Assembly (NCBI GenBank): GCA_028748975.1
Contig: JAQTPI010000001.1
Coordinates: forward strand, 354 to 64,353
Direction: 5' to 3'
Source: Patescibacteria group bacterium
Lineage (GTDB): Bacteria > Patescibacteriota > Patescibacteriia > UBA2196
DNA: 64,000 bases
The position numbers and the translations under genes were made by a program. This document shows, piece by piece, positions 7,784 to 53,700 of this stretch. The notes below the pieces were generated by a model, which made no database searches, was not told the DNA's origin, and saw nothing but the letters and a program-made list of their open reading frames with translations. How positions within the stretch are numbered: position 1 is the stretch's first letter; each line of letters begins with the position of its first letter.

Positions 7784-8107
7784 ATGCGCTTGTCAAACCT
7801 CCAAAAATTTATTCTGTTAGAATGCCTAAACTCAAAAACAGGCAAAATTTTGCGTGGAAAATTAAATAAGTTTTATGAGAAAATTGAAAAGAAACCTAAA
7901 ATTGAAATGATGACGAAAATTATCACGCAAAGTATGGAGCGCCTAATTGAAAAAGAACTGCTCGTCGGTTTTGGCGAGCGCACTTCGCATAAATGGTTCA
8001 TTAAAGAAATAAAAATTACGCCGTTTGGCAGAAGAGTAACCAAGAAATTGTTGGGAGAGCAGATGTCTTTGCCGTTTAGTAAAAGCATTAAAGCATTAAA
8101 GCATTAA
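7784..8107 (+). CDS. hypothetical protein (possible winged-helix fold)
   Basis: In-frame ATG (MRLSNLQKFILLECLNSKTGKIL...) lies just after the upstream stop. The 3' end is a 'gcattaaagcattaaagcattaaagcatta' tandem repeat. Confidence 0.35.
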   Translation: MRLSNLQKFILLECLNSKTGKILRGKLNKFYEKIEKKPKIEMMTKIITQSMERLIEKELLVGFGERTSHKWFIKEIKITPFGRRVTKKLLGEQMSLPFSKSIKALKH

Positions 8108-8175
8108 AGCATTATTTACCTGCCTGCCGGCAAGGCAGGAAAATTACAAAATTAAAAATTAAAAATTGTAAATAT

Positions 8176-9488: not shown

Positions 9489-9567
9489 TTTTTTGTCATT
9501 CCGGCCCCCGAGCCGGAATCCAGAAAAAATGTTCCTGGATCCCGGGTCACGGCCCGGGATGACATAA
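9489..9567. repeat. intergenic palindromic repeat modules ('tgtcattccggcccccgagccggaatc' plus 'ggatcccgggtcacggcccgggatgaca')
   Basis: Two hairpin modules. The same modules recur at 27125, 11700, 32890, 45400 and 52795. Confidence 0.7.
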
Positions 9568-11629: not shown

Positions 11630-11800
11630 AGAGTGTCATCCTGATCCGCCAGCTGGCGGAGAAGGATCTCGTCGTTTGTCATCCCGTGCCGAGACACGGG
11701 ATCCAGAAAACAAATACATGGATTCCGGGTCAAGCCCGGAATGATAAGCGGCTACGAGATTCCTCGTCCCGAGTGCTCGGGACTCGGAATGACAAACATT
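11630..11800. repeat. cluster of four palindromic repeat modules upstream of ileS
   Basis: 'gtcatcctgatccgccagctggcggagaaggatctcg', 'gtcatcccgtgccgagacacgggatc', 'ggattccgggtcaagcccggaatga' and 'cgtcccgagtgctcgggactcggaatgaca'. Confidence 0.75.
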
Positions 11801-15400: not shown

Positions 15401-15456
15401 GTTTTTGGTGATAAGATTATTTTGTCGTTCCAACTTTCCAATAAACGTGCCGTTAT

Positions 15457-15571
15457 CCCCTCCTTTCGAAGGAGGGGTCGGCCGATACCAATCGGCCGGG
15501 GGTGGTTGTGGTGTTTTTACAACCCCTCCGGTCCCGAGGACTCGGGACCACCTCCCCTTCGAAAGGGGAGG
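15457..15571. mobile_element. ~115-bp MITE-like element with terminal inverted repeats 'cccctcctttcgaaggagggg'/'cctccccttcgaaaggggagg'
   Basis: A second copy at 52433..52548 has the same ends and a related core. In both copies the 3' terminal repeat 'ggggagg' serves as the SD for the next gene (recO, secE). Confidence 0.6.
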
Positions 15572-15579
15572 ATAAAAAT

Positions 15580-16555: not shown

Positions 16556-17788
16556 ATGTTTGAGATACTCCACCAATCCAAAAAATCTTCCGCTCGGCGC
16601 GGAATTTTAAAAACCGCGCACGGCGCAATCCCGACGCCATTTTTTTTGCCCATTGCCACCAAGGGCTCGGTCAAAGCCCTTGCTTCTTCTGATCTAAAAA
16701 ATTTGGGCGCCGAAATTATTCTTTCCAACACTTATCACTTATATCTTCAGCCAGGGCTAAAAGTTCTAAAAAAATTTGGCGGTTTGCACAAGTTTATGAA
16801 CTGGCAGGGGCCAATTCTAACCGATTCCGGTGGCTATCAGGTGTTTTCTCTTGGCGCTGGCAAAAGAGAAAAGAAAGACGTCAGTTTTGTAAAAATTATC
16901 AAAGATGGTGTCAAATTCAAATCATTTCTTGACGGCAGTGAACATTTTTTTACACCCGAGAGTGTCCAAGAAATTCAAGACATAATCGGTGCCGATATTA
17001 AAATGGTTTTGGACGTTTGTTCTCCGCACCCTTGTTCTAAAAAGCAAGCGGCCAAAGATCTAGAATTAACCCACGAATGGGCCAAGCGGGCGCTGGAGTA
17101 CCAAAGAGATAAGAGATATGAGATAAGAGATAAGAATAACAAAAATCGATCCGCCAAATTGGCGGGCGAAATTCAAAATTCCCTTTTGTTTGGCATTGTC
17201 CAGGGTTCAACCTATAAAGATCTGCGCCTCAAGTCCGCCAAGTTTTTGAGCAAATTAAATTTCGATGGTCTAGCCATCGGCGGTTTGGCCGTGGGCGAAG
17301 AAAACAAAAAAATGTATGAAGTTTTAAAATATACCGTGCCCGAATTGCCAAAAAATAAACCGCGCTATTTAATGGGCGTGGGCAAACCGGAAAATATAAT
17401 TGAGGCAGTCAAACAGGGGATTGATATGTTTGATTGCGTTATCCCGACGCGCGAAGCGCGCCACGGCCGGCTCTATTTGTGGTGCCATCCTGAGCGAAGC
17501 CCGCTTCGGTCGCGAAGCGAGGCGAGCGAAGGACCTCATAGAAACATTACTAAGAAAAACTTCTATAAAATTATCAATATTAATAATGCCAAATTCAAAA
17601 ACAATACCAAGCCAATTGATAAAAATTGCTCTTGCGAATTCTGCCAAAACTACAGCGCCGGCTATTTACAGCATCTTTTTAAAGCTGGTGAGCCTTTGGC
17701 CTTGCGTTTGGCCACTTTGCATAATTTAAAATTCTTCCTTGACCTATTTTTTCAAATACGTTACGATATAAAAAAGGGCACTTTGTAA
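16556..17788 (+). CDS. tgt: queuine tRNA-ribosyltransferase
   Basis: 'LTDSGGYQVFSL' and the zinc site 'CSCEFCQNYSAGYLQHL'. Carries two in-frame repeat insertions (17103-17140 and 17483-17536). Confidence 0.85.
   Translation: MFEILHQSKKSSARRGILKTAHGAIPTPFFLPIATKGSVKALASSDLKNLGAEIILSNTYHLYLQPGLKVLKKFGGLHKFMNWQGPILTDSGGYQVFSLGAGKREKKDVSFVKIIKDGVKFKSFLDGSEHFFTPESVQEIQDIIGADIKMVLDVCSPHPCSKKQAAKDLELTHEWAKRALEYQRDKRYEIRDKNNKNRSAKLAGEIQNSLLFGIVQGSTYKDLRLKSAKFLSKLNFDGLAIGGLAVGEENKKMYEVLKYTVPELPKNKPRYLMGVGKPENIIEAVKQGIDMFDCVIPTREARHGRLYLWCHPERSPLRSRSEASEGPHRNITKKNFYKIININNAKFKNNTKPIDKNCSCEFCQNYSAGYLQHLFKAGEPLALRLATLHNLKFFLDLFFQIRYDIKKGTL
17483..17536 (+). repeat. palindromic repeat module inserted in-frame in tgt
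   Basis: 'catcctgagcgaagcccgcttcggtcgcgaagcgaggcgagcgaagg' encodes 'HPERSPLRSRSEASEGP'. It belongs to the same family as the intergenic 'gtcattccgagcgaagc...' modules. Confidence 0.65.
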
Positions 17789-22915: not shown

Positions 22916-22928
22916 TTTAATAAATAAT

Positions 22929-23104
22929 TTCCAATAACCAAGAAACAATTTCCAAATAAGTTCCAAATACCAAATTCCAAATAATCATATTTTGAATTTT
23001 GGTTATTGAAATTTGTGGTTGTCCTTAGGACAACCATCCCGCAATTCTGCGGGATGCCAGCGAAGCTGGCATTTATTTGGAAATTGGAACTTGTATCTTG
23101 GAAC
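22929..23104. mobile_element. ~176-bp MITE-like element, copy 1 of 3
   Basis: Near-identical to 39031..39205 and 53443..53618. Three hairpins: 'ggttgtccttaggacaacc', 'cccgcaattctgcggg' and 'gccagcgaagctggc'. Ends 'gttccaaata...' and '...tatcttggaac' are inverted. Begins 14 bp after the M16 peptidase stop. Confidence 0.65.
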
Positions 23105-23116
23105 TTAAAAAATTTT

Positions 23117-28353: not shown

Positions 28354-29238
28354 ATGCTTTTTGATTCGCATTGCCACCTCAATTTTTCCGTTTTTGCGGA
28401 AAATTATAGAGAAATAATCGCCGATTGCTTAAAAAAAGAAATCGGCGTTATTAATATCGGTTCGCAATTTGACACCTCCAAGCGCGCGGCCGAAATCGCG
28501 GCGGAATTTCCTAATAAAGAAATTTATGCCAGTGTTGGACTTCATCCGATTCATATTTCTGGCACCGAAGTTGACGATGAAGAGATAAAATTTAAGGGTC
28601 GCGAAGAAAAATTTGATGAAGAAAAATATCAGGAGTTAATTGATAATTATAAAAATAAAATAATTGCGGTGGGAGAAATTGGTTTGGATTATTGGCATAT
28701 ACCAATTAACAATCAACAATTAACAGTTAACAAAAAAGAAAACTGGAAAGAAAAACAAAAAGAAAGTTTTATCGCGCAACTAAATTTTGCGGTGAAAAAT
28801 AACTTACCGGTAATTTTACACGCGCGGGGCAGTAAGGAGAATTCGAACGATGCTTATGAAGATATGTTAAAAATTATCCAATTACAAATTACTAATTACA
28901 AATTACGGATTACTGGCGTCCTTCATTGTTTCGGCTCCAGTCGTAAAATCGCCCAGCAGTTTTTAGACCTCGGCTTCTACCTTGGTTTCACCGGCATCAT
29001 TACTTTCAAAAACAAAAACGTGGAAGAATTAAAAGAGGTGGTAAAAATGGCGCCACTTGATAAAATTTTGGTGGAAACCGACGCGCCCTATCTTTCACCG
29101 GAGCCCTTTCGTGGCAAAAAAAATACGCCACAAAATGTTGAATTTGTGGCGCGCCAAGTGGCGGAGTTGAAAAATACGACTTTTGAAAAAGTGTGCGAAC
29201 AAACAACCAAGAACATTGAAAAGGTTTTCAGGATTTAG
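28354..29238 (+). CDS. tatD: TatD family metal-dependent DNase/hydrolase
   Basis: 'MLFDSHCHLNF' and 'GEIGLDY'. In-frame 'aattaacaat' repeat insertion at 28703-28733. Confidence 0.85.
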   Translation: MLFDSHCHLNFSVFAENYREIIADCLKKEIGVINIGSQFDTSKRAAEIAAEFPNKEIYASVGLHPIHISGTEVDDEEIKFKGREEKFDEEKYQELIDNYKNKIIAVGEIGLDYWHIPINNQQLTVNKKENWKEKQKESFIAQLNFAVKNNLPVILHARGSKENSNDAYEDMLKIIQLQITNYKLRITGVLHCFGSSRKIAQQFLDLGFYLGFTGIITFKNKNVEELKEVVKMAPLDKILVETDAPYLSPEPFRGKKNTPQNVEFVARQVAELKNTTFEKVCEQTTKNIEKVFRI

Positions 29239-29862: not shown

Positions 29863-30510
29863 ATGAGTTACCAATCCTGGCAAAGAATCAATTTAGAAAA
29901 CTTAGACGAAAAGGCGCTTGAAGAAAAATACGCCCAAGGTTTTGTTTTGACACGGATTTTTAAACAAATGGATCAGGTGCGCAGTTTGCGGGTAGTTTTG
30001 GAAAAATTCGTGCCCTCTTCGGAAAATAGGCGGATTTTAAGAAAAGGCGAGGAAATTGAAATGCGGGCGCTAAGTTTGCCAATGCCGATAGAAAATTATG
30101 ATTGGCGGATTCACGCCACTGGCGCGAAATTTTATAGTGAAAAATTCGGCCCTGGGACTTTCAGCGCCAATAAAATCAAGGAATTAATCACCAGCAATAA
30201 ATCAAATTTTAATTGCTTGTTAGTTTTTAGCGACAAAAAAACCAACCAAGATATCGGCTGGTCAATTTGTTTTTTAAGTAAAAATATCTTACACTACGCT
30301 TACCCCTTTTATAATTTGTCATATAATAATTTGGGAATTATCATGATGACCAAAACGATTGAATGGGCGAGTGGACAGGGAATTAATTTTTGCTATCTTG
30401 GTTCAATTTGGGATGAAAAGGCAAAATATAAATTGCAATTTTTTCCAGAAGAATTTTTTGACGGAAAAGAATGGCAAGGTGTAGATAAATTATTTTTTAA
30501 CCTGCCCTGA
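29863..30510 (+). CDS. hypothetical protein
   Basis: No family recognised with confidence. Confidence 0.4.
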   Translation: MSYQSWQRINLENLDEKALEEKYAQGFVLTRIFKQMDQVRSLRVVLEKFVPSSENRRILRKGEEIEMRALSLPMPIENYDWRIHATGAKFYSEKFGPGTFSANKIKELITSNKSNFNCLLVFSDKKTNQDIGWSICFLSKNILHYAYPFYNLSYNNLGIIMMTKTIEWASGQGINFCYLGSIWDEKAKYKLQFFPEEFFDGKEWQGVDKLFFNLP

Positions 30511-30640
30511 GGACTCCGACCTAATGTCGGAGGACGAAGGGCACCCTGCGAACTTGGGCAGATAGTATTTTGTAAATCTTATCTTTCTGCCACGGGATCC
30601 TTCGCCCTCGATTGCTATCGGGGCTCAGGATAGATCGTAG
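30505..30640. mobile_element. ~125-bp MITE-like element
   Basis: About 80% identical to the reverse complement of 33418..33545. Shared blocks include 'gacgaagggcaccctgcgaac' and 'tgccacgggatccttcg'. Confidence 0.55.
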
Positions 30641-30648
30641 TTTGTTTA

Positions 30649-30801
30649 CTTATCCGCCTCTACTTTTCTAACTTTAACTTCTTCGCCTTCCACGCCCTCC
30701 ACAGTTAAAGTCATTTGGCAGGCCGGGCATTCAATAAAAGAGCCGGCTTCAGCCGTTTCCACTTCCCAGACATTAGCGCATTCGGGGCAAGTTATTTTCA
30801 T
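30649..30801 (-). CDS. LysW-like zinc-ribbon protein (50 aa)
   Basis: MKITCPECANVWEVETAEAGSFIECPACQMTLTVEGVEGEEVKVRKVEADK. The CPEC-x16-CPAC architecture matches LysW/ArgW carriers, but the C-terminal EDWGE tail is missing. No strong SD. Confidence 0.35.
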
Positions 30802-31002
30802 ATTTTTTTCTTTCTTTGTTTATTCATCTAATAAAGAATAAACTTTAATTATAATAATTTTGTCATTCCGACCGGAGCGACCCCGAGTACTCGGGGGAGC
30901 GAAGTGGAGGAATCCCTTATACTTTCCATTCAAGAAAGTCGAAGGGATCCCTCGACAAGCTCGGGATGACACTGATAATATTGTAATATTTAATAAAGAC
31001 CA

Positions 31003-31977
31003 ATGTCAAATATTTTTTTATCAAAATTTTTGTCAGAGAAATACGGACGTAAAATTTTTATCTGTGACGAGACAAAAAATCCGACTGGTTCGCATAAGGA
31101 CCACTCTTTTGGCGTCTGGCTGGAAAAAATAAAGGAGGAGGGAAATATAAAAGACTCGGTAATTTCGTCTTCCGGCAATGCCGCGGCTTCGGCAGCATAT
31201 TTTGCGCGGCAATTTGGTTTGCTGCTGCATATTTTTGTTTCGGAAAAAATTAGTAAAGAAAAATTGGAGAAAATAAGATTTTTTGCGGATGGCGGCGTCG
31301 GAAATATCCTCCCCTTTCGAAGGGGAGGTCTCCGACAGCAGTCGGAGGGAGGGGTTGTAATTGGAAACAACAACCACCCCGGCTCTCCGCCAGCTGGCGG
31401 ATTCGCCACCCCTCCTTCGAAAGGAGGGGATAGTGACATTGAAATTAAATTAGTGGCGCGGCCAAAATTTGAAGCAGCCAAAGCAGTTAAAGAAAACGAT
31501 TGGTTATTATTGCGCTCGTCCATTAATGATGATGCGCTACTTGGATATGAGTTCTTGGCAAAAGAGCTGGATGTAATTAATCCTAAAACTATTTTTATTC
31601 CCAGTTCTTCTGGTACGCTGGCGGCGGGCTTAGCTAAATTTTTGAAATCAAAACCAGCTTTTCATTTGGTGCAAACGACAAAAGTTAATACTTTGGTTAA
31701 AAATTTTGATCAAGATTTTGTGCCGGAAGAAAAATCTTTGGCCGACGCGATTGTGGATTTAATCGGCCAGCGCCGGCCGCAAGCGGAAGAAATAATCACA
31801 AGTTCCGGTGGTTTTGGTTGGGTAATCAATAATAAAGAAATAGAATCCGCGCGAGCAGAACTAAAAGAAGCCGGGATTGAGTGTTCCTATACTTCGGCGC
31901 TGGGGCTGGCGGGAATGAAGAAAGCGGTGGAGAAAAATTTTGAAGTTAGAGAACCGATTGTTATAATTGTCACTTAG
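31003..31977 (+). CDS. PLP-dependent enzyme, tryptophan-synthase-beta-like fold (threonine synthase/cysteine synthase superfamily)
   Basis: 'DETKNPTGSHKD' is the PLP-lysine motif. Carries a ~125-nt in-frame repeat insertion at 31309-31435. Confidence 0.55.
   Translation: MSNIFLSKFLSEKYGRKIFICDETKNPTGSHKDHSFGVWLEKIKEEGNIKDSVISSSGNAAASAAYFARQFGLLLHIFVSEKISKEKLEKIRFFADGGVGNILPFRRGGLRQQSEGGVVIGNNNHPGSPPAGGFATPPSKGGDSDIEIKLVARPKFEAAKAVKENDWLLLRSSINDDALLGYEFLAKELDVINPKTIFIPSSSGTLAAGLAKFLKSKPAFHLVQTTKVNTLVKNFDQDFVPEEKSLADAIVDLIGQRRPQAEEIITSSGGFGWVINNKEIESARAELKEAGIECSYTSALGLAGMKKAVEKNFEVREPIVIIVT
31309..31435 (+). repeat. palindromic repeat modules inserted in-frame in the PLP-enzyme gene
   Basis: 'cccctttcgaaggggagg...ccgccagctggcgg...cccctccttcgaaaggagggg' encodes 'ILPFRRGGLRQQSEGG...PPAGGFATPPSKGGD'. 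Confidence 0.7.
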
Positions 31978-32059
31978 TAGCACGTCATTCCGAGCGAAGC
32001 GATGGAATCTTGCGACGAGATCCCATCGCCCCTTTGGGGCTCGGGATGACACTGTAATT

Positions 32060-33412
32060 ATGTCTAATATTCTTTTGCTTTCCACCGACCTGGAAAAATT
32101 CTCCTACCTTATGGAAAAAGGCGGTTTTGGTTTGACGACTTTTGCAGACCAAAAAGAAAAGGCAATACCGGAAAACTGGCCAGTGGATTTTGTGGAATAT
32201 AAAGGGAAAAATTCGACACTGGATATTTTGATGGATGAAAAAATAAAAGAAATAAAAGAAAAAACCGGCGCGCGTTTGGTTTATGTTTTTAAAAATAGTT
32301 TTTTAATAGAAAAAGAACTGGCAAAATTAGATTTTTCACCGCTTAATCCGCCAGCGGAATTAACAGAAAAAATTGAAGGCAAAATTAGTCAGGCTGATTT
32401 TTTTCCGGAAATAAAAGAATTTTTTCCGGAATTTATAATTGCCAAACCTGGCGAAAAAACTTGGGAAGAAATAAAAAAAGAATTAGGCGAAAATTTAATC
32501 GCGCAGTTCAACACCAGTCATTCTGGCGCGGGAACTTTTGAACTTTCGGAAAATTTGTGGCAAGAATGGCAAAAGAAATTTCCGCATCGGCCAATTCGTA
32601 TCAGTAAATTTATTGTCGGTGAAACTTTAACTTTAAATCTGGTAGTTTTGCCAACAGCTATAATTCTGGGCGTGCCAAGCAAGCAACTGACCGGCACGCC
32701 GGGTTTGACTGAACATAAATTCACCACCGTCGGCAATGCCTGGATTACTTTTGACGGAGAAACAAAAAATCAAATGGAAACAATTGCCAAGGGTGTCGGC
32801 GCAATTTTACAAAAGAATAATTTTTTTGGTCCGGCGGGTTTGGATTTGATAGTTGAAAAAATACCCAGCACCGATGTCATCCCCGCGCAGGCGGGGATCC
32901 AGAAAAACGGTTCCTGGATTCCGGGTCAAGCCCGGAATGACAGTAGTGGTGAGCGAAAAACTTATTTGATTGAAATTAACGCGCGCCAGCCGGCCTCTTT
33001 CAATTTGGAAAGTTGGCTCGCGAAATTGGCAAACAGAAAAGGGCTATTTGATTATTTGGTTGATTTTTGGCAGGGGAAAATTTTGCCAGCGGAAATGGAG
33101 CCACTCGCGATTTCGGGCGGACAGATTGTGGTGCGTGCCAAAAGCGACTGGTGTGGTATAATAAAATCGACCCCAAAAACAGGCGTTTATGGCCTGGATA
33201 ATGGCCAACTGGTGTTAGTGACCGAGAGGCTCTTTTTAGCCTCAAAAAACGAGTTTTTAGCCCATTTTTGCCCTATAGGACGGCAATGTTTGCCTGGAGG
33301 CGAGGTTTTTCGGGTGCAGACAGGGAAGAACTTTATTGATTCTAATGGTGGGCTAAGTGAAGAGATTTTGACGATAATTGAGAAATTGAAGAAGGAAATA
33401 ATTTTTTATTAA
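32060..33412 (+). CDS. ATP-grasp family ligase
   Basis: C-terminal 'GLDLIVEK...TYLIEINARQP' is the ATP-grasp E-x-N-x-R motif. Start MSNILLL after repeat 31981..32058. In-frame repeat insertion at 32881-32942. Confidence 0.5.
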   Translation: MSNILLLSTDLEKFSYLMEKGGFGLTTFADQKEKAIPENWPVDFVEYKGKNSTLDILMDEKIKEIKEKTGARLVYVFKNSFLIEKELAKLDFSPLNPPAELTEKIEGKISQADFFPEIKEFFPEFIIAKPGEKTWEEIKKELGENLIAQFNTSHSGAGTFELSENLWQEWQKKFPHRPIRISKFIVGETLTLNLVVLPTAIILGVPSKQLTGTPGLTEHKFTTVGNAWITFDGETKNQMETIAKGVGAILQKNNFFGPAGLDLIVEKIPSTDVIPAQAGIQKNGSWIPGQARNDSSGERKTYLIEINARQPASFNLESWLAKLANRKGLFDYLVDFWQGKILPAEMEPLAISGGQIVVRAKSDWCGIIKSTPKTGVYGLDNGQLVLVTERLFLASKNEFLAHFCPIGRQCLPGGEVFRVQTGKNFIDSNGGLSEEILTIIEKLKKEIIFY

Positions 33413-33417
33413 CTTGA

Positions 33418-33545
33418 TTGAAGTCTATCCTGAGGAGGTCCGACAGCAGTCGGACCGACGAAGGATCCCGTGGCAAGCGGGCAAATCTTGCAAAATAAGT
33501 CTGCCCATGTTCGCAGAGGGTCCTTCGTCGCGTGGCTCCTCAGGA
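33418..33545. mobile_element. ~125-bp MITE-like element (inverted relative to 30505..30640)
   Basis: Terminal inverted repeats 'tatcctgaggag'/'ctcctcaggaca'. Confidence 0.55.
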
Positions 33546-33559
33546 CAGGTTTAAAAAAT

Positions 33560-34597
33560 ATGTTGACTCAAATAATTATTTTAATAATCGTCATTGTCGG
33601 CTTCGCGCTGATGTATTTTTTGCTGTCTAAAAAAACCGGTGCGGACGCGGGGCAGGACGAAAAATTGAAAGAAGTGCGCGAGGAGATTGGAAAAATAAAA
33701 GATGAAATGAAAAATAGTTTGGAAAAGAACTTGGATTTTATTCAGAAACAATCATTTAATACTTCACGGATTGTGCAGGATGTCACGAGCAAACTGGAAA
33801 AATTGGAAGCGACCAATAAACAAGTGGTCAGTTTCACCGACCAATTGCAAAACCTGGAAAAAGTTTTGACCAATTCCAAAAATCGCGGCTCCTTGGGCGA
33901 AGCGAATTTGGAATTGATTTTAAGCAACATTTTGCCTCCACAGAATTATGAAATGCAATATCGCTTTAAAGACGGCGAAACCGTGGACGCGGTGATTAAA
34001 ATCAAAAACCACCTTTTGCCGGTGGACGCCAAGTTTTCTTTGGAAAATTATCGCCGGATCTTGGCGGAAACGGATTTGGGCAAAAAAGTGGAACTGGAAA
34101 AAATGTTTAAAAACGATTTGAAAAAAAGAATTGATGAGACCTCCAAATATATCCGGCCGAACGAAGACACCCTGGATTTTGCTTTCATGTTCATTCCGGC
34201 GGAAGGAATTTATTATGATTTGTTAATCAATGAAGTCGGCGCAGTCAAAGTGGACACCGGCGGACTGATTGATTACGCGTTTAAAGAAAAAAAAGTGATT
34301 ATTGTTTCGCCGACGACTTTCGCCGCCTATTTGCAAACGGTTTTGCAGGGTCTGCGCGCACTCCAAATCGAAGAGTCCGCGAAAGAAATTCGGAAGCGCG
34401 TGGAAGAACTCGGCCGGCACATGATTTCGGTTGATTCTTACATGCAAAAACTTGGGAATAATTTGGGCACGGTGGTGAATTCCTATAACGCGACATATAA
34501 AGAATTAGGTAAGGTGGATAAGGATGTAGTTAAGATTACGGAAGGAGAGCGGAAAATAGAGCCATTAACTTTAGAAAAACCACAAATAGAACAATAA
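33560..34597 (+). CDS. rmuC: DNA recombination protein RmuC
   Basis: N-terminal TM helix, coiled coil, 'NRGSLGEANLELILSNILPPQNYEMQYRF' and 'DAVIKIKNHLLPVDAKF'. Confidence 0.75.
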   Translation: MLTQIIILIIVIVGFALMYFLLSKKTGADAGQDEKLKEVREEIGKIKDEMKNSLEKNLDFIQKQSFNTSRIVQDVTSKLEKLEATNKQVVSFTDQLQNLEKVLTNSKNRGSLGEANLELILSNILPPQNYEMQYRFKDGETVDAVIKIKNHLLPVDAKFSLENYRRILAETDLGKKVELEKMFKNDLKKRIDETSKYIRPNEDTLDFAFMFIPAEGIYYDLLINEVGAVKVDTGGLIDYAFKEKKVIIVSPTTFAAYLQTVLQGLRALQIEESAKEIRKRVEELGRHMISVDSYMQKLGNNLGTVVNSYNATYKELGKVDKDVVKITEGERKIEPLTLEKPQIEQ

Positions 34598-35732: not shown

Positions 35733-38700
35733 ATGAATGAAAAATTAAATCCTCAACAAAAAATAGCCGTAGAGCAGACGGAAGGCCCACTACTTATCGT
35801 CGCGGGCGCGGGGACCGGCAAAACCACGGTGATTACGGAAAAAATCGCCTATTTAATTATGGAAAAGAAAATCAAGGCCGACGAAGTTTTGGCCCTGACT
35901 TTCACGGACAAAGCCGCCGGAGAAATGGAAGAACGCGTGGACAAACTTCTGCCCTATGGCTATGTGGATTTGTGGGTGATGACTTTTCATTCTTTTTGCG
36001 AAAGAATTTTGCAAATCCACGGTCTGGACATCGGCCTCGCCAATGATTTCAAACTTTTGAACCAAACCGATCAGTGGCTTTTGGCCCGCGAAAATTTGGA
36101 CAAATTTAATTTGGATTATTATCGACCATTGGGCAACCCCACCAAATTCATTCACGCTTTGATCAAGCATTTTTCCCGCTGTAAAGATGAAGAAATTTGG
36201 CCGGGGGATTATTTGAAGTACGCGGAAAATTTGAAAATAAATTTGGATTCAATGGAGGCGAGCGGGGGAGTGGCATTAAAACATGAAAGCATTAAAACAT
36301 TAAAGCAAGACCCCCTCCCTCCGACTGCTGTCGTAGGACTCCCCCTTATCAAGGGGGAGAGCTTAAAAGCTCCCCTCCTTTATAAGCCTGCCTCGCCAAG
36401 TCAAGGCGGGGATGGGGTTGGGGGAGGTAATAAAGAAATAGATATTTCAGAAATTAGGCGCCTAGAAGAAGTGGCCAACGCCTACCACGTTTATCAAAAT
36501 TTACTGCTGGAATCCGGCAGTTTGGATTTCGGCGATCTAATAAATTATACTTTGAAACTTTTCCGCGAGCGGCCGAATATCTTGAAAAAATATCAGGAAC
36601 AATTCAAATATATTTTGGTGGATGAATTTCAGGACACCAATTTCGCGCAATATGAACTGGTAAAATTATTGTCGGCTGGGCACCAGAATTTGACCGTGGT
36701 CGGCGACGACGACCAGTCAATCTACAAATTCCGCGGCGCCAGCGTTTCCAACATTTTGCAGTTTAAGGAAGATTTTCCAGAGTCCAAAGAAATTTTTTTG
36801 AATCAAAATTATCGCTCCAGCCAGAATATTTTGGATCTGGCGTATAATTTTATTCAATTGAATAATCCGGAGAGGCTGGAGGTGAAACTAAGAAATCAGA
36901 AACTAGAAAACAGAAATCAGGAACTGACCAAAAAATTGATAGCGAATACGAATGAAATGGGGATTATTGAGCATCTACATTTTTCTTCCGAGACAGAGGA
37001 GGTAGCTGGCGTCATTAATAAAATTGTAGAATTATATAACACAGAAAGCCGAGGTAAAGAAAATACACAAGACCTGAAGGACGGAGATTCCCGATTTCCG
37101 ATTTCTGATTTCCGATTACCGTCGTCATGGAACGACTTTGCCATTTTAATCCGCGCCAATAATCAGGCGGAAGTTTTTATCAATGCCTTGCGCGGTGCCG
37201 GCATTCCCTATAATTTTGTGGCGTCAAAGGGCTTGTATTCCAAAGAAATAATTTTGGATATTTTTGCTTACTTGAAACTCTTGGACAATTATCATGAATC
37301 CTTGGCTTTGTGGCGCGTTTTAAACATGCCGATGGTCGGCATCAAAATTGAAGATTTGATGGAAATTACCAATTTTGCCAAACGCAAAGCAATTTCGCTT
37401 TTTGAAACCTGCGCGCAAATTAATTTATTCAATAATATACAGCCAGAAACCAAGCGCAAAGTGGAAAAAATTTTGAAATTAATTTCACTCCACACCAAAT
37501 TGGCCAAAGAAAAATCCATCAAAGCAGTCATTCTTAAATTTTTGGAAGATTTCAATTACAGCCAGTTTTTGCTGGCCAAAAACGATGAGTTGTCTTTTGC
37601 ATTTGTCAATCAGCTCATAAAAAAGATTGATGATTTCCAAAAGTCGTTTGCTGACAAGTCGCTGAAAAATTTCATGCGTTTGATTGAACTGGAAGTGGAA
37701 TCGGGCGAGGCCGGGAGCTTGAGCAAAGAATTGGAAGAAGGGCCGGAAGCGGTGAAAATTATGACCGTGCATTCGGCCAAGGGCTTGGAATTTAAATATG
37801 TTTTTATCGTCAATTTGGTGGATAAAAGATTTCCCTCTCTGGAGCGCTCCGAAACGATTGAAATTCCAGACGCCCTGGTCAAAGAAATTATTCCTTCCGG
37901 CGACATTCACCTGCAGGAAGAACGGCGCTTGTTTTATGTGGCCATGACGCGCGCCAAAACCGGCTTATTTTTCACTTCGGCGGAAAATTATGGCGGCGCG
38001 CGCAAGAAAAAATTGTCGCAGTTTTTGTATGAGACGGGTTTGTCATTAAAACATGAAAACATTAAAACATTAAAGCAAGAAGTAGATAATAAATTAACAA
38101 TTAACAACCAACAATTAGCAATAAACAAGGAACAAAAACCCTTATTACTTATTACTCATTACTCATTACCCGTTACTTTTTCCTTCTCCGCCCTTAAGGC
38201 CTATGAAACCTGTCCCTATCAATATCATCTGGGTTACGTTGTTAAAATCCCCACGCCCGGCCGCCCTAATTTCAGTTTTGGCAAAACCATGCACACCACT
38301 CTCCAAAGATTTTTTTCTTTGGCAAAAGAACGTGATAGTATAAAACAGAGTGATTTATTTGGTAAGCAGAAGTTAGAAGTCGGAAGTCGGGAGTTGGGAG
38401 TTAATTTGCCACCGCTAGAAGAATTATTAAAATTATATAAAGAATCTTGGATTGACGACTGGTATGATGATCAAAAACAAAAAGAAGAATATCGCGCGCG
38501 CGGCGAACAATCGCTTAAAAATTTATATGAACAATTAAAAGAAAATGGCGCGCCGCAAGTTTTCGCCTTGGAAAGAGATTTCAATTTAAAAATTGGCGGT
38601 TATACAATTAAAGGTAGAATTGATCGAGTTGATTTAATAAAAAGGCCAGATTCGCAAAATTCGCAGGAGATTAGCAATAATTCGCAAAACCAAACATCAC

Positions 38701-39023: not shown

Positions 39024-39030
39024 CAAAAGC

Positions 39031-39205
39031 TCCAATAACCAAGAAACAATTTCCAAATAAGTTCCAAATACCAAATTCCAAAAAATTATATTTTGAATTT
39101 TGGTTATTGAAATTTGTGGTTGTCCTTAGGACAACCATCCCGCAATTCTGCGGGATGCCAGCGAAGCTGGCATTTATTTGGAAATTGGAACTTGTATCTT
39201 GGAAA
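39031..39205. mobile_element. ~176-bp MITE-like element, copy 2 of 3
   Basis: Starts 8 bp after the helicase stop. The ORF-track 'MKFVVVLRTTIPQFCGMPAKLAFIWKLEL' N-terminus lies inside it and is rejected. Confidence 0.65.
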
Positions 39206-39214
39206 TTTATTTTT

Positions 39215-41055: not shown

Positions 41056-41200
41056 TTTCCGCGCCTACCTGCCTCGCCGGCCCGCTTCGACGCGAGGCGA
41101 GTAGGCGGGTCGGCGAAACAAACAACCACCCCCAGCCGATTACTATCGGCTGACCCCTCCTTCGAAAGGAGGGGATAGCGACGCAGTGTCCCCCTTGTTA
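41056..41200. repeat. cluster of palindromic repeat modules
   Basis: 'gcctcgccggcccgcttcgacgcgaggcgagtaggcgggtcggcg', 'cagccgattactatcggctg' and 'cccctccttcgaaaggagggg'. Followed by 'ttactttattactttgttattttattac'. Confidence 0.7.
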
Positions 41201-41231: not shown

Positions 41232-42296
41232 ATGCAAAAAAAACTTGACCAACTCAAAGGCGAATTTTTGGAAAAGTTGAATTTAACTAAAACCGAAAGA
41301 GATTTGGAAAAAATCTATATGGACTATTTTGGCCGCAAAGGAAAATTGACGGAAGTTTTTAAGGATGTTAAAAATGTGGCCGTGGAAGAAAAGCCAATTA
41401 TCGGGAAAATTATTAATGATATCAAAATTGAAGCAGAGAAAGTTTATAGTGAAATGAAAGAGACACTAACTAACAATAAACAACAAACAATAAACAATAA
41501 ACAACTTTTTGATCCAACGGTGCCGGGAACACTGCGTGAAGTTGGTTCTTTGCATCCGACCACGATTATTAAAAATGAATTGAATGACGCGTTTCGCCAG
41601 ATGGGTTTTGAAATTTATGATCCGGCAGAAGAAATTACGAGTGAGGGTTATGCTTTTGACAGCATGAATTTTCCACCTGACCATCCGGCGCGCGAATCAA
41701 TGGATACGTTTTGGATAAAACAACAAACAACAAACAACAAACAACAAACAACCAACGGATTTGAGAGATTATGCTTAAGACCACACTTAACGGGAGCAAG
41801 CGTGCGTTTTATGCAAACGCACCAGCCGCCGTTTCGGTTTGTTTATCCGGGCCGGGTTTTCCGAAGTGAAGCCACGGACGCCGGACATGAAGCGACTTTT
41901 TATCAATATGAAGCTTTAATTGTGGATGATAAAATCTCTTTTTCCGCCGGAAAAATTTTAGTCAAAGCGATTTTGGAGAGGGTTTTTGGTAAGGAAATTA
42001 AAATCCGCATGCGCGCGGGATTTTTTCCTTTTGTGGAACCGGGTTTTGAAATTGATATGGAATGCCAGGTTTGTGGAGGGAAAGGATGCTCGGTTTGCAA
42101 ACACAAGGGCTGGGTGGAAATTATGCCGGGCGGCGCACCGCATCCGAATGTTTTGAAAGCGGGAGGATTAGATCCGAAAAAATGGCAGGGGTTTTATATC
42201 AATGTCGGTTTGGACCGACTCGCGATGATGAAATTTGGCATTGACGACATTCGTCTGATGCATTCCGGCGATTTGAGATTTTTGAAACAGTTTTAA
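41232..42296 (+). CDS. pheS: phenylalanyl-tRNA synthetase alpha subunit
   Basis: 'FPPDHPARESMDTFWI' and 'GWVEIMPGG'. Two in-frame A/C-rich repeat insertions (41467-41506 and 41718-41757). Confidence 0.9.
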   Translation: MQKKLDQLKGEFLEKLNLTKTERDLEKIYMDYFGRKGKLTEVFKDVKNVAVEEKPIIGKIINDIKIEAEKVYSEMKETLTNNKQQTINNKQLFDPTVPGTLREVGSLHPTTIIKNELNDAFRQMGFEIYDPAEEITSEGYAFDSMNFPPDHPARESMDTFWIKQQTTNNKQQTTNGFERLCLRPHLTGASVRFMQTHQPPFRFVYPGRVFRSEATDAGHEATFYQYEALIVDDKISFSAGKILVKAILERVFGKEIKIRMRAGFFPFVEPGFEIDMECQVCGGKGCSVCKHKGWVEIMPGGAPHPNVLKAGGLDPKKWQGFYINVGLDRLAMMKFGIDDIRLMHSGDLRFLKQF

Positions 42297-43277: not shown

Positions 43278-44126
43278 ATGGCCAACCAAGCAATCTTGCC
43301 AAATCAACAGTCGCAAATTCAAAAACCAAAAAAGAGACATGGTAAGGGGTTTATCATTACTTTTGTTTTGCTAGTAGTATTAGTATCGGGTTGGGCTGGA
43401 TTAACAAAGGCCGGATATATTCCTAATTATTTTGGTATTGATTTACTATGTTCAAAAAAAGATAATCCATATAATATTCCAAATGATACTCCAACGCCAA
43501 ACGAAGATTGTAAAAAGTGTATAGATGCCGACGGCAACTTTAATGAAAAAACATGTCCGTCATTTTGTATACTTGATTACAAACCAGTTATTTATCTTTA
43601 CCCACCCCAAAAACAACAGGTTAATGTAAAAATCAATTATGCTGGTAATTTTGTCGTTACTTATCCGGAATATAATAATGGCTGGAATGTTACAGCCTAT
43701 CCCGATGGGAAAATTATAAGTTTAGCTGATAATAAGGAATATAGTTATCTTTTTTGGGAAGGTAATCCTAATAATGTGAATTATGATTTATCTTCTGGTT
43801 TTGTTGTGGAGGGAAAAAATACAATTGATTTTTTACAAGCCAAACTTAAAGATTTGGGACTTACAGCAAAAGAATACAATGAATTTATTGTTTATTGGTA
43901 TCCGCAAATGATGAATAATAAATATAATTTGATTCATTTTGCCACCAAAGAAGAATATAATGATCGAGCGATTTTAAATATCACACCGAAACCCGATTCC
44001 ATGCTCAGGGTGTTTATGGTCTTTAAAAAATTGGATGAAAAAATTGAAACTAATCCGCAAGAAATCATGTCTTTTGAAAGAAAGGGATTTACGGTGGTGG
44101 AGTGGGGTGGAACAGAAATTAAATAA
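43278..44126 (+). CDS. membrane-anchored hypothetical protein
   Basis: N-terminal TM helix. No family recognised. Confidence 0.45.
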   Translation: MANQAILPNQQSQIQKPKKRHGKGFIITFVLLVVLVSGWAGLTKAGYIPNYFGIDLLCSKKDNPYNIPNDTPTPNEDCKKCIDADGNFNEKTCPSFCILDYKPVIYLYPPQKQQVNVKINYAGNFVVTYPEYNNGWNVTAYPDGKIISLADNKEYSYLFWEGNPNNVNYDLSSGFVVEGKNTIDFLQAKLKDLGLTAKEYNEFIVYWYPQMMNNKYNLIHFATKEEYNDRAILNITPKPDSMLRVFMVFKKLDEKIETNPQEIMSFERKGFTVVEWGGTEIK

Positions 44127-44279: not shown

Positions 44280-45353
44280 ATGTCCATCGCAAAAATTTTC
44301 ATTCTAACATTTCTCGCCTTTGTGGGCGCGTTTTGGTGGGCGCCGATTTTGGCGCGGAAACTAACGAAGTGGCAGTTGTGGAAAGAACCGCGCAAATACA
44401 CTTCCGACGGACATTTGATTGTCACTTTGAAACAAATTGAAAAAGACCACATCGTCAAAACTCCGCGCGGCGGAGGACTGATTATCTGGGTGACCATCGC
44501 GGTTTTGGCGCTGGTAATCTTTTTAATTAATAAAATTTTTAATGGCGCTTTGGACAGTTTAAGCTTTCTGTCCCGCAACGAAACCTGGCTGCCGATTTTT
44601 ACTTTGGTCGTGGCCGGCTTAATCGGTTTAATTGATGACATTTTAACAGCCAAAGGCACAGGCAAATATTTTGCCGGCGGCATGGGCCTGACGCGCCGGA
44701 TTATCATTGTGGCGGGCATCGCTCTCGTCGGCGCGCTCTGGTTCCATTTCAAACTTGGCTGGGACACAATTCATGTGCCGTTTTTTGGCGATTTCTATAT
44801 TAATGGTTTTTACATTCCTCTTTTCATCATTTCCATGGTCGCGGTTTTTTCTTCCGGCGTGATTGACGGCATTGACGGGCTTTCGGGCGGAGTTTTCGCG
44901 GCGCTTTTCATGACTTTTGGCGTGATTGCTTTCATGCGCGGACAAGTTAATTTAGCTGCTTTTTGCGCCATGGTAGCCGGGACTTTGGCCGTGTTTCTGT
45001 GGTTCAACGCTCCGCCGGCCAGATTCTATGTCGGGGAAACAGGCATCATCGCTTTGACCACGACTTTGACCGTGATTGCTTTTTTAACCAACACCGTTTT
45101 GCTTTTGCCCTTGGCCGGAATTGTGCTCGTGGCCACGACTGGTTCGGATATTATTCAATTACTTTATCGCCAGCATGGAATTAAAAAGGGCTGGTCGCTT
45201 GAAAAAAGAAAATTTTTCAAAGCCGCACCCCTGCATCATCATTTTCAACTGAAAGGCATGAAAAGCGAAACGGTGGTGATGCGCTATTGGATTGTCACCG
45301 GCATTGCCTGCATCGCCTCGCTGATGATTTATTTGTTGGATAAAGGACTATAA
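44280..45353 (+). CDS. mraY: phospho-N-acetylmuramoyl-pentapeptide transferase
   Basis: 'GLIDDIL', 'VIDGIDGLSGG' and the MraY-specific 'PLHHHFQLKG'. Confidence 0.65.
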   Translation: MSIAKIFILTFLAFVGAFWWAPILARKLTKWQLWKEPRKYTSDGHLIVTLKQIEKDHIVKTPRGGGLIIWVTIAVLALVIFLINKIFNGALDSLSFLSRNETWLPIFTLVVAGLIGLIDDILTAKGTGKYFAGGMGLTRRIIIVAGIALVGALWFHFKLGWDTIHVPFFGDFYINGFYIPLFIISMVAVFSSGVIDGIDGLSGGVFAALFMTFGVIAFMRGQVNLAAFCAMVAGTLAVFLWFNAPPARFYVGETGIIALTTTLTVIAFLTNTVLLLPLAGIVLVATTGSDIIQLLYRQHGIKKGWSLEKRKFFKAAPLHHHFQLKGMKSETVVMRYWIVTGIACIASLMIYLLDKGL

Positions 45354-45477
45354 TTCACGAATGCCTCGCGAATGCTCTCACTAATTTTCACAAATAAACT
45401 AACCTGTCATCCCGGGCTTGACCCGGGATCCAGAAAACAACTCCTAGATTCCGGCTCACGGGCCGGAATGACACAAA

Positions 45478-46302
45478 ATGAATATAATAAAAAAAATAAA
45501 ATACTTCGGCGGGAGCATCTATCGCGGACTGATTGGCATCTGGCAAAATGCTTTTGACAAAGCGCCGGAAATTAAGACGACGGTGGAGTGGTTTGTTTTG
45601 GGCAACTCGCGCGAAGGACGAAACATCCGTTGTTACAAAATTGGCACTGGCCCGAAAAAAATTCTTTTTGTCGCCGGCATCCATGGCAATGAAGTGGGTA
45701 CTATAAAATTAGCGCATAATCTAATAAATTGGTTATATAATCATCAAGAAAAATTTTTCAATCTTTCAATTTATATTATTTCTTGCTTAAATCCCGATGG
45801 CTTTGAAATTGCCAAGCAATTTCCCGACTATTTCAGGCGCGGACGCTTTGGCCGCTTTAATCTCAATAATGTGGATTTGGACCGCAATTTTCCTTCTAAA
45901 AATTGGCAGCCGCAATCAATTTGGCCGCGCGGCCGCGACTATGGCGACGAAGCCATCGAAGTTCTTTGCGGCGACTCGCCAGGTTCCGAGCCGGAAGTTC
46001 AAGGATTTGTTTCTTTTGCCGGCATTGAAAGAATTAAAAATATTATTTCTTTTCACAACATGGCGGGCGATGTGATCATTAATTTGGAAAATCCGATAGC
46101 GGTGAAATGGGCAAATATTTATAACAAAAAAGCAAAATTCCGCATCGTCAAGAGCCCGAGGCTGTCCGGCAACATGTCGGAGTGGTGTTTGGAAAATAAT
46201 ATCAATTACATGACCGTGGAAGGAACCACGCGGTGGGGAAGCGACTGGCGAAAGCAGAGGGTGGCGATTCAGGAAGTATTAAATAATTTACAAAATAGTT
46301 AA
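45478..46302 (+). CDS. M14 family zinc carboxypeptidase (MpaA/gamma-D-Glu-DAP peptidase-like)
   Basis: 'GIHGNEVGT' is the HxxE zinc motif, in an M14-like context. Confidence 0.55.
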   Translation: MNIIKKIKYFGGSIYRGLIGIWQNAFDKAPEIKTTVEWFVLGNSREGRNIRCYKIGTGPKKILFVAGIHGNEVGTIKLAHNLINWLYNHQEKFFNLSIYIISCLNPDGFEIAKQFPDYFRRGRFGRFNLNNVDLDRNFPSKNWQPQSIWPRGRDYGDEAIEVLCGDSPGSEPEVQGFVSFAGIERIKNIISFHNMAGDVIINLENPIAVKWANIYNKKAKFRIVKSPRLSGNMSEWCLENNINYMTVEGTTRWGSDWRKQRVAIQEVLNNLQNS

Positions 46303-49505: not shown

Positions 49506-51737
<2,232 letters not shown>

Positions 51738-52307: not shown

Positions 52308-52432
52308 CGAAGAAATAGTTAAACCTGTTTTATCCCTATTTGACAACCCAAACATGCCTGTGCTATCATTACAGCATAAGGCCTCCAGGGCCTTTTAAAA
52401 TCGATAAAAAATAGCTTTAAAAGCGGAATTTA

Positions 52433-52548
52433 TCCCCTCCTTTCGAAGGAGGGGTGCCGAGTGAAACGAGGCGGGGTGGTTGTAACTTCAACCACAACCC
52501 CTCTGGGTTTCGCTTCGCTCAACCCACCTCCCCTTCGAAAGGGGAGGA
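52433..52548. mobile_element. ~115-bp MITE-like element, second copy of the 15457..15571 family
   Basis: Terminal repeats 'cccctcctttcgaaggagggg'/'cctccccttcgaaaggggagg'. The 3' end supplies the secE SD. Confidence 0.6.
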
Positions 52549-52559
52549 TAACAAAACAT

Positions 52560-52742: not shown

Positions 52743-52886
52743 ACAAATAGACACAGATATTAGACAGATAGATACAAATACACAGATTCCTGTATTCCAG
52801 GTCAAGCCCGGAAAGACAAGGAGAATAAACCCGTGTATCTGTGAAAATCTGTAGTCAAACTGTGAAAATCTGTTTTTAATATAACT

Positions 52887-53432: not shown

Positions 53433-53442
53433 CAGTAATAAT

Positions 53443-53618
53443 TTCCAATAACCAAGAAACAATTTCCAAATAAGTTCCAAATACCAAATTCCAAATAATC
53501 ATATTTTGAATTTTGGTTATTGAAATTTGTGGTTGTCCTTAGGACAACCATCCCGCAATTCTGCGGGATGCCAGCGAAGCTGGCATTTATTTGGAAATTG
53601 GAACTTGTATCTTGGAAC
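53443..53618. mobile_element. ~176-bp MITE-like element, copy 3 of 3
   Basis: Starts 10 bp after the nusG stop. Nearly identical to copies 1 and 2. Confidence 0.65.
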
Positions 53619-53700
53619 TTAAAAGATAAAGAATAAGAAATAAACGCGATTAACTTTGTCTTGCTTCTGGATAAAATTAATCTCCAATAAAGATGATTAT

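Follow-up and report, generated by a model that had tools for sequence, protein, structure and literature searches.

A conserved Patescibacteria gene block with a LysW-like zinc ribbon, a PLP enzyme and an ATP-grasp ligase, linked by gene context to peptidoglycan precursor synthesis

We analysed a 64,000-nucleotide stretch of DNA (hereafter the window) from a Patescibacteria group bacterium (GenBank assembly GCA_028748975.1, contig JAQTPI010000001.1, positions 354 to 64,353 of the forward strand), and in it a block of four genes that encode an ATE-like transferase homologue, a LysW-like zinc-ribbon protein, a fold-type-II pyridoxal phosphate (PLP) enzyme and an ATP-grasp ligase. A first-pass annotation, made from the letters alone, had singled out the last three as a 2.8-kb segment bracketed by two inverted copies, A and B, of a repeat resembling a miniature inverted-repeat transposable element (MITE). 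The four genes are a functionally linked block that is conserved across Patescibacteria, and their context links the module to which they belong, completed in other lineages by an NlpC/P60-like amidase, to peptidoglycan precursor synthesis.

Genes and features of the block

The block and the features discussed below are laid out in the window as follows (aa, amino acids; REP, repetitive extragenic palindrome).

28354-29238, plus strand: TatD.
29863-30510, plus strand: ATE/Bpt-like aminoacyl-tRNA-protein transferase homologue (ATE-like), 215 aa, a member of the conserved module.
30505-30640: hairpin (MITE/REP-like) repeat copy A, in the spacer of the convergent ATE-like and zinc-ribbon genes.
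30646-30801, minus strand: LysW-like zinc-ribbon protein, 51 aa, acidic, with the C-terminus ...VEADK.
30855-30980: palindromic repeat C, with an internal palindrome, between the divergent zinc-ribbon and PLP-enzyme genes.
31003-31977, plus strand: fold-type-II PLP enzyme, 324 aa (PALP, E 2.6e-35).
31288-31425, plus strand: 46-aa in-frame insertion, residues 96-141 of the PLP enzyme (palindromic element at 31305-31432).
31975-32058: palindromic repeat D, between the PLP-enzyme and ATP-grasp genes.
32060-33412, plus strand: ATP-grasp ligase, 450 aa (ATP-grasp_3, E 9e-4).
32861-32950, plus strand: in-frame insertion of ~30 aa (IPSTDVIPAQAGIQKNGSWIPGQARNDSSG), residues 268-297 of the ATP-grasp ligase; a hairpin repeat.
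33418-33555: hairpin repeat copy B, an inverted member of the A family, between the ATP-grasp and RmuC genes.
33560-34597, plus strand: RmuC.
44280-45353, plus strand: MraY (Glycos_transf_4; TIGR00445 mraY, E 1.4e-29).
45478-46302, plus strand: MpaA-like M14 amidase, adjoining MraY (Peptidase_M14, E 1.4e-22).

The gene content proposed between the repeats was borne out, except that the zinc ribbon has 51 residues and not 50, and the motifs that had been read there were all found: CPEC-x16-CPAC in the zinc ribbon, DETKNPTGSHKD in the PLP enzyme and YLIEINARQP in the ATP-grasp ligase. The true start of the ATP-grasp gene is ATG 32060, the position at which its orthologues begin, and not TTG 31967; the open reading frame (ORF) started at the TTG has a spurious N-terminal extension because repeat D gets translated.

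The zinc-ribbon ORF (MKITCPEC-x16-CPAC...VEADK) scores weakly by itself against the LysW models (NF041070 LysW/ArgW, E 4.2e-5, 23.5 bits with a cut-off of 75; PF21344, E 1e-3, 19.1 bits with a cut-off of 27). Among 31 members of its family, 30 match both PF21344 Zn_ribbon_LysW (best E 1.4e-10) and NF041070 (best E 1.9e-12), and the top matches of the zinc ribbon in the PDB are the LysW entries 5k2m_E and 3wwl_A (Thermococcus and Thermus LysW). The family as defined here comprises 38 distinct sequences derived from the loci described below; a word-indexed search with the 50-aa query gave only 6 close relatives. All 38 keep the four Cys and terminate in Lys, and the LysW tail -EDWGE, or a terminal Glu, occurs in none of them. 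Most end in -EGK (29 of 38, typically -V-D-E-G-K), the clade of the window ends in -x-D-K and the window copy in -ADK. The mean net charge of the family is -6.3, strongly acidic like LysW. An exhaustive HMMER search of 1.8 billion representatives with a narrow zinc-ribbon profile returned mostly generic multi-zinc-ribbon proteins, so that only short matches were informative: the short family members also end in K, and the next relative is a genuine LysW ending in -LPDWGE. One candidate, P0309, was not counted as a family member, its context being archaeal-looking (DNA polymerase D genes) and devoid of module genes nearby.

On these profile and PDB matches, we take the zinc ribbon to be a LysW homologue, and a relative of LysW rather than a member of the LysW pathway. 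Genes for LysZ, LysY, LysJ or LysK (ArgB/C/D/E-like) were found neither among the Pfam-annotated neighbours in loci L001-L014 nor among the scanned ORFs of the window. The first-pass annotation had described a LysW-like protein without the EDWGE tail, which agrees with these matches and with the Lys that ends every sequence, and had named lack of conservation of the ORF as a possible refutation; with 38 distinct orthologues, the ORF is conserved.

The PLP enzyme matches PALP, and its catalytic K32 is invariant in 63 sequences. Its AlphaFold2 model (pLDDT 88.7) has the threonine synthase ThrC 2zsj as top Foldseek match (TM 0.74, 20% identity), and a profile of the family matches ThrC in the PDB at E 8e-28, closely followed among structural and profile neighbours by threonine/serine dehydratases and serine/aspartate racemases. 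Like class II ThrC, its best structural and profile match, it keeps the PLP-binding Lys within NPTGSHKD as well as the SSSGN and SSSGT loops. It differs in being ~60 residues shorter and ~20% identical, and in that the ThrC stretch NSVNPYRIEGQKT, which contains residues binding the substrate phosphate, is replaced by R-x-S-T-D-x-x-A-L-x-G-Y in the HMMER alignment. The best NCBIfam threonine-synthase model, PRK08329, gives 75.1 bits with a cut-off of 358, and TIGR00260 gives 51.4 with a cut-off of 167, far under the equivalog level. By structure and profile, the enzyme is thus closest to class II threonine synthases and is not an equivalog of them.

The only Pfam match of the ATP-grasp ligase is the weak one to ATP-grasp_3 (PF02655), and its one marginal sequence match in the PDB is 7r8p. 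Its AlphaFold2 model (pLDDT 91.8) finds biotin carboxylase, PurD, PurK, BacD and PylC as top Foldseek matches, at TM ~0.6 and 10-15% identity, with the L-amino-acid ligases BacD/YwfE among them. Nearly all of 122 homologues are from Patescibacteria. By its predicted structure, the ligase falls in the biotin-carboxylase / PurD / L-amino-acid-ligase structural class, and within it in an uncharacterised Patescibacteria family. Some members are fused to NUDIX domains (P0016, P0020, P0032, P0039, P0061, P0080, P0087 and P0090, from Magasanikbacteria and other lineages) and one, P0031, to NlpC/P60; these fusions hint at nucleotide-linked substrates and at coupled ligase/amidase activity. A further fusion in the family lies at 2948-4972 of L022.

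Could these genes be housekeeping neighbours by chance, the PLP enzyme being a threonine synthase, the ligase a D-Ala-D-Ala ligase or canonical LysX, and the zinc ribbon an unrelated small zinc-finger protein? The JGI label of the PLP enzyme is 'threonine synthase', and an ATP-grasp gene beside murB, as found in other lineages, recalls the murB-ddl arrangement. The threonine-synthase score is nevertheless 75 bits with a cut-off of 358. The first-pass annotation had allowed that the ligase might prove to be a well-known enzyme such as Ddl; the window protein has no Ddl match in Pfam or NCBIfam and no RimK match in Pfam, and phmmer with E. coli DdlB as the query returned nothing at E <= 10 from the ORFs of 94 loci and the window. 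The ATP-grasp orthologue of L038 matches the archaeal pseudomurein model 'Ddl_archaea' weakly (E 1e-4). The ligase is also unlikely to be a simple replacement of Ddl, because Ddl/Van-type ligases are reported to be common in genomes of the candidate phyla radiation (CPR) as well (PMC8651080). Together with the strict co-occurrence of the genes documented below, which argues against chance, this makes a housekeeping assortment very improbable.

Context of the module across Patescibacteria

An alignment of 57 ATP-grasp sequences, used to scan metagenomes, yielded 80 loci, which were searched with hidden Markov models from annotated examples; an earlier scan of genome contigs, with peptide patterns that were too specific, had given only 4. 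The commonest order, present in 17 of the 80 loci, consists of MurB on the minus strand; the ATP-grasp ligase, an NlpC/P60-like amidase of ~260 aa, MraY, the ATE-like transferase and a MurC/Mpl-like ligase on the plus strand; the zinc ribbon on the minus strand; and the PLP enzyme on the plus strand, often with MurD on the minus strand after it. Four more loci add a MurD-like gene to this order. A second arrangement runs ATE-like, MurC-like, zinc ribbon (minus strand), PLP enzyme, ATP-grasp, P60-like, MraY, FtsW and MurG. In the third, that of the window, the four genes stand alone, apart from mur genes.

The four genes therefore stay together in three different arrangements and across distant Patescibacteria, and the trio of zinc ribbon, PLP enzyme and ATP-grasp ligase, whose presence in relatives the first-pass annotation had proposed as a check, is indeed shared by them. 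Forty loci have at least 7 kb on one side. Zinc ribbon, PLP enzyme and ATE-like gene are all present in 27 of them, and most of the remaining ones are truncated; the ATE-like gene co-occurs with ATP-grasp in 28 of the 40. All PLP-enzyme genes with upstream room (31 of 31) have a divergent zinc-ribbon gene directly upstream. In L100, the zinc ribbon is divergent to a PLP-enzyme/P60-like operon. The Pfam-annotated examples show MurB, MraY, Mur ligases, FtsW, MurG and FemAB around the module; L011 is a further example in a peptidoglycan context, and in L013 a FemAB gene lies within the same cluster. In the window, MraY is 11 kb from the block, whereas in most Patescibacteria it belongs to the same cluster as the module. 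In most lineages the block is embedded in the mur cluster. Thus, gene context links the module to peptidoglycan precursor synthesis, and in the lineage of the window the four genes left that cluster together. NCBI and JGI label the module proteins 'hypothetical', 'PLP-dependent lyase/thiolase', 'threonine synthase', 'ribosomal protein S27E' or 'HypA', and full-text literature searches found no published description of a LysW-like/ATP-grasp system in Patescibacteria peptidoglycan synthesis.

The ATE-like protein of the window falls just under the cut-off of Pfam ATE_C (PF04377; E 6.7e-5, 23.9 bits with a cut-off of 25), which its orthologue in L038 passes with 35.5 bits. Matches to the NCBIfam arginyltransferase models range from E 9e-12 (PRK01305, window) to 5e-18, below the equivalog cut-offs. 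There is no match to ATE_N, and the alignments begin at about profile position 70-78 of 247.

The amidase that adjoins MraY in the window matches NF007897 murein tripeptide amidase MpaA at E 4.3e-17, below the cut-off, and may stand in for the NlpC/P60-like amidase found with the module in other lineages. A 282-aa ORF upstream of MraY (43278-44126) was considered as the missing NlpC/P60-like gene and rejected (BLASTP E 6.4; no Pfam or NCBIfam match). We also observed a YkuD L,D-transpeptidase with FG-GAP repeats at 55407-56918, 9 kb beyond the MpaA-like amidase. Both proteins are wall-related and could bear on the peptidoglycan type of the organism.

Amidases next to ligases raise the question of whether the module salvages murein peptides and rebuilds them. 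In that case, wall peptides that are imported or come from the host would be recycled, in epibionts that are unable to make amino acids, by amidases (P60-like, MpaA-like) together with ligases (Mpl-like, and an ATP-grasp of the L-amino-acid-ligase type), and the PLP enzyme and the zinc ribbon would convert one recovered residue. The position of the MpaA-like amidase beside MraY suits this idea, as do the NlpC/P60-like amidase that adjoins the ligase, the presence of BacD/YwfE among the top structural matches, and the Mur ligase of the cluster, a MurC/Mpl-like enzyme with a MurD-like neighbour that scores nearly as well against Mpl (247 bits) as against MurC (274 bits). All of these matches are, however, below curated cut-offs. 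MurB, MurD and MraY, which are enzymes of de novo synthesis, belong to the cluster as well, no transporter accompanies it, and the terminal Lys of the zinc ribbon is left unexplained. We consider salvage improbable.

Hairpin repeats and the island question

Are the repeats that bracket the segment the borders of an island? Copies A and B are related and inverted, as the first-pass annotation had proposed, with an extent and identity smaller than the ~80% over 125 nt that it had given: blastn aligns them in inverted orientation at 73% identity over 107 nt (E 1.6e-10), and a Smith-Waterman alignment gives 82 of 109 positions (75%) and a score of 72, compared with 14.9 +/- 2.1 (maximum 23) in 500 shuffles and 28 in direct orientation. 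The coordinates of A were confirmed, whereas B reaches 33555 instead of ending at 33545. Each copy forms a long imperfect nested hairpin (RNA-fold z-scores of -3.2 to -9.6).

Relatives, at 47-80% identity, were located through their ATP-grasp and PLP proteins. The ATE-like (plus), zinc-ribbon (minus), PLP-enzyme (plus) and ATP-grasp (plus) genes have the same order and orientation in L001, L004-L010 and L095-L097, with TatD upstream and RmuC downstream wherever the contig of the relative extends far enough. One of these, L010 (CAZDKR010000037.1), is a 6.3-kb contig labelled 'uncultured Gammaproteobacteria bacterium' that carries the Patescibacteria-type four-gene block; its ATP-grasp is 47% identical to the lead ATP-grasp sequence of the alignment, and the contig is probably mis-binned.

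In L004, L007, L008 and L009 (~47-50% protein identity) the spacers are 3, ~60, 6 and 17 nt and hold no repeats; copy A is absent from these four and from L001. The closer relatives L095 and L097 (~78-87% nucleotide identity) have an A-family copy in the ATE-like/zinc-ribbon spacer, orthologous to A (1571-1674 in L095, 13-144 in L097), and lack B, of which no copy was found at the orthologous site in any relative examined. A 102-aa ORF without a Pfam match occupies the site of copy B in L095 (4393-4701) and L097 (2661-2969). Because L095 and L097 have A without B, the two copies were inserted at different times into a pre-existing block.

The inner spacers follow the same pattern. Repeat C has an orthologue in L095 (1928-2031, 82% identity), and the zinc-ribbon/PLP-enzyme spacer of L004 and L007 is ~60 nt and repeat-free. 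Repeat D is 97.6% identical to L095 2989-3072, where the flanking coding DNA is only 78-85% identical; in L004 and L007 the corresponding spacer measures 6-7 nt. The excess identity of D could come from recent independent insertion, from gene conversion among copies, or from selection.

The first-pass annotation had taken the flanking inverted repeats as a sign that the 2.8-kb segment could be acquired or invertible, which would involve recombination between the two copies. In its favour, A and B are homologous, inverted and the sole two copies of their family in the window. However, the same genes with the same flanks and orientation occur in relatives that have no repeats or copy A only, the segment and its flanks encode no transposase, recombinase or invertase, the GC profile of the segment is unremarkable, and every spacer in the segment holds hairpin repeats. 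The comparison of synteny that had been proposed for presence or absence of the island finds the segment present, and in the same orientation, in all relatives examined. An island is thus hardly credible: the segment is an ancestral Patescibacteria block, not a mobile island, and the hairpin repeats came into it late, as part of a repeat invasion of the whole genome.

This invasion is extensive. In the window, 51 local inverted-repeat pairs were counted, and its palindromic repeats fall into dozens of families; a count of elements by GC-island scan was too noisy, and the strongly folding islands that look like elements number ~18 in 64 kb. Six elements lie in the 3-kb segment (A, C, the PLP-gene insert, D, the ATP-grasp-gene insert and B), so that hairpin repeats occupy all four block spacers and the interior of two block genes. 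None of the segment repeats has a meaningful match in Rfam, where all fall far below the gathering score. In genomes saturated with repeats in this way, a gene block between two similar hairpins is not thereby a mobile island.

The in-frame repeat insertions that the first-pass annotation had read in both enzymes were confirmed by alignment to insertion-free relatives. The PLP-enzyme insertion is missing from L096, L097 and P0128, and that of the ATP-grasp from every relative examined. In the PLP gene, the element has arms of 25 nt that are 84% complementary, and further copies of its family are found at 15454-15574, 52431-52550 and 41122-41182; copies related to the ATP-grasp insert lie at 9494-9565, 11698-11744, 45404-45436 and 52787-52818. 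Both inserts are surface loops of otherwise confident AlphaFold2 models, disordered at residues 106-141 of the PLP enzyme and 272-290 of the ATP-grasp ligase (pLDDT <50 in each case). L001 and L095 carry unrelated sequences in the same PLP-enzyme loop, and L095-L097 have an insert in a different ATP-grasp loop. Elsewhere in the window, GC-rich palindromes are inserted in frame in a tRNA-guanine transglycosylase gene (17483-17532, 'CHPERSPLRSRSEASEGP') and a UvrD-like helicase gene (36302-36431, 'PLPPTAVVGLPLIKGESLKAPLLYKPASPSQGGDGVGGG'). In-frame loop inserts are thus a genome-wide habit of the lineage, and those of relatives differ in kind and in loop.

The layout recalls Rickettsia palindromic elements and REP/MITE-like repeats, in which many families of short palindromes fill intergenic spacers and also occur as in-frame loop inserts that housekeeping proteins tolerate. 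The likeness is one of layout: here the host is a Patescibacteria lineage, the hairpins are GC-rich in an AT-rich genome, and Rfam matches are lacking.

Two further kinds of repeat were observed in the window. An AT-rich element of 191 nt is present in three copies that are 94-99% identical (22923-23113, 39024-39214 and 53437-53627), each starting directly after a stop codon and each with a GC-rich hairpin core between terminal inverted repeats of 41-52 nt; an inverted arm related to these lies at 56941-56992. It looks like a recently active MITE family. Short AT-rich tandem repeats of 7-8 nt, for example (AACAATT)n, (ACAAGAG)n and (GCATTAAA)n, occur in several genes and spacers (28703-28735, within TatD; 14350-14382; 38091-38137; 41467-41499; 51355-51418 and 62463-62512; 8070-8122 and 36258-36310), some of them in frame, such as 'NNQQLTVNKKEN' in TatD.

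A candidate carrier-assisted module and the alternatives

What does the module do? Carrier proteins of the LysW/ArgW type act with the ATP-grasp ligases LysX/ArgX in lysine biosynthesis through alpha-aminoadipate and in arginine biosynthesis in Thermus and archaea, and amino-group carrier protein (AmCP) systems are found in Streptomyces. In LysW, the gamma-carboxyl of the terminal Glu holds the amino group of the substrate. The module has in common with these systems a small acidic CxxC...CxxC zinc ribbon with a homologous globular domain, a flexible C-terminal tail with an invariant last residue, and gene linkage to an ATP-grasp ligase, a PLP enzyme and an amidase that could free the product. 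It differs in its tail, -DEGK, -xDK or -xEK instead of -EDWGE, which would present a terminal amine instead of a carboxyl; in its ligase, of the biotin-carboxylase/L-amino-acid-ligase class instead of RimK/LysX; in having no LysZ, LysY, LysJ or LysK; and in its context, Patescibacteria peptidoglycan precursor synthesis. The idea of a LysW-like carrier with an ATP-grasp partner, which the first-pass annotation had raised, is supported as far as a LysW homologue linked to ATP-grasp and PLP genes is concerned; the pair is not canonical LysW/LysX, because the tail ends in Lys and the ligase is of another type.

By analogy with these systems and from the gene context, we propose tentatively, at somewhat less than an even chance, that the module ligates and edits amino acids with the help of a carrier protein, and so feeds peptidoglycan synthesis. 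The acidic LysW paralogue would be a covalent carrier with reversed polarity, its invariant C-terminal Lys offering the epsilon-amine. The ATP-grasp ligase would first acylate this epsilon-amine with an amino acid through the carboxyl of the latter, a reaction for which AslA/Aslfm and PylC are precedents, as ATP-grasp enzymes that acylate a Lys epsilon-amine. Because the alpha-amine of the tethered amino acid stays free, the residue would be open to editing by the ThrC-like PLP enzyme, through racemisation or beta/gamma-replacement. The NlpC/P60-like amidase, or in the window possibly the MpaA-like M14 amidase, would free the product, which would enter the peptidoglycan stem or side chain via a Mur ligase or be extended by the tRNA-dependent ATE-like transferase.

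The pairing of amidase and ligase has a parallel in glutathionylspermidine synthetase/amidase (Gss), in which a CHAP/NlpC-P60-type amidase is fused to an ATP-grasp-like synthetase. Common to both is a papain-like amidase fused or adjacent to an ATP-dependent amide ligase, which suggests that the same amide bond may be made and broken. The sequence families differ, and the module has a protein partner and a PLP enzyme in addition.

Several points weigh against a carrier mechanism, which is itself argued from gene context and by analogy. The ATP-grasp ligase falls outside the RimK/LysX type and shares only ~12% identity with any structure solved so far. A free alpha-carboxylate is normally among the groups that fold-type-II PLP enzymes bind, and a substrate tethered through an amide might not have one. 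The last three positions of the zinc ribbon (EGK, xDK, xEK) also include a conserved acidic residue; its side chain, and not the Lys, could be the attachment site, as in LysW. The closest tie of the zinc ribbon is to the PLP enzyme and not to the ligase, the pair of ATP-grasp and P60-like genes also occurs without the rest of the module (L019, L046), and no NlpC/P60-like homologue was found within the 64-kb window. The more specific claim that the zinc ribbon founds a 'reverse-polarity' branch of LysW, in which the epsilon-amine of the terminal Lys holds an amino acid by its carboxyl for PLP editing and release by the amidase, is doubtful.

The main rival is a side-chain (cross-bridge) module without a covalent protein carrier. 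In lactic acid bacteria and enterococci, AslA/Aslfm with RacD and the Fem/Bpp transferases build the cross-bridges of peptidoglycan. The ATP-grasp enzyme AslA attaches D-Asp to the Lys of the stem peptide, and the gene of its racemase belongs to the same operon; aminoacyl-tRNA transferases supply the L-amino acids of side chains (PMC4155827). In a module of this kind, the PLP enzyme would be a fold-type-II racemase, the ATP-grasp ligase would acylate the stem-peptide Lys of UDP-MurNAc-peptide at its epsilon-amine with the resulting D-amino acid, the ATE-like protein would add an L-amino acid from aminoacyl-tRNA, as Fem/Bpp transferases do, and the zinc ribbon would merely be an accessory, regulatory or substrate-mimic partner of the PLP enzyme. 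The parallel would extend to an ATP-grasp that acylates a Lys epsilon-amine, a partner from the same operon that supplies the amino acid and tRNA-dependent transferases of L-amino acids, all serving peptidoglycan (PMC4155827).

This rival follows a documented paradigm (PMC4155827), and the location of the module in a peptidoglycan cluster, the ATP-grasp/NUDIX fusions that suggest nucleotide-linked substrates, the serine and aspartate racemases among the structural neighbours of the PLP enzyme and the FemAB gene in the L013 cluster are all consistent with it. The likeness of the ATP-grasp to AslA is, however, one of operon logic only. The partner enzyme is a ThrC-like fold-type-II PLP enzyme, nearer to threonine synthases than to known racemases, instead of a PLP-independent Asp/Glu-type racemase, and the transferase is ATE/Bpt-like, not FemAB. 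The LysW-like protein and the NlpC/P60-like amidase are extra invariant members, and a cross-bridge module explains neither: not a LysW homologue with an invariant terminal Lys that is paired with the PLP gene in 31 of 31 loci, nor a cytoplasmic NlpC/P60-like amidase that is fused to the ligase or encoded beside it and that shares an operon with the PLP enzyme. We regard a carrier-free cross-bridge module as unlikely, and retain carrier-assisted ligation as the preferred reading.

Patescibacteria (CPR) make up a large share of bacterial diversity and build peptidoglycan despite a minimal metabolism; to our knowledge, the source of their unusual wall building blocks is poorly understood. We class the module as a variant carrier-protein (AmCP/LysW) system in a biological context that is new for this kind; its repeat bracketing is ordinary for the genome. 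A conserved and so far unannotated set of five genes (zinc ribbon, PLP enzyme, ATP-grasp, NlpC/P60-like and ATE-like) in the middle of the mur cluster points to an undescribed step in wall-precursor synthesis, and to a possible second chemical mode for LysW-type carrier proteins. If the carrier mechanism is true, many Patescibacteria would make a building block of the wall, for example a D-amino acid, on a protein carrier encoded within the mur cluster.

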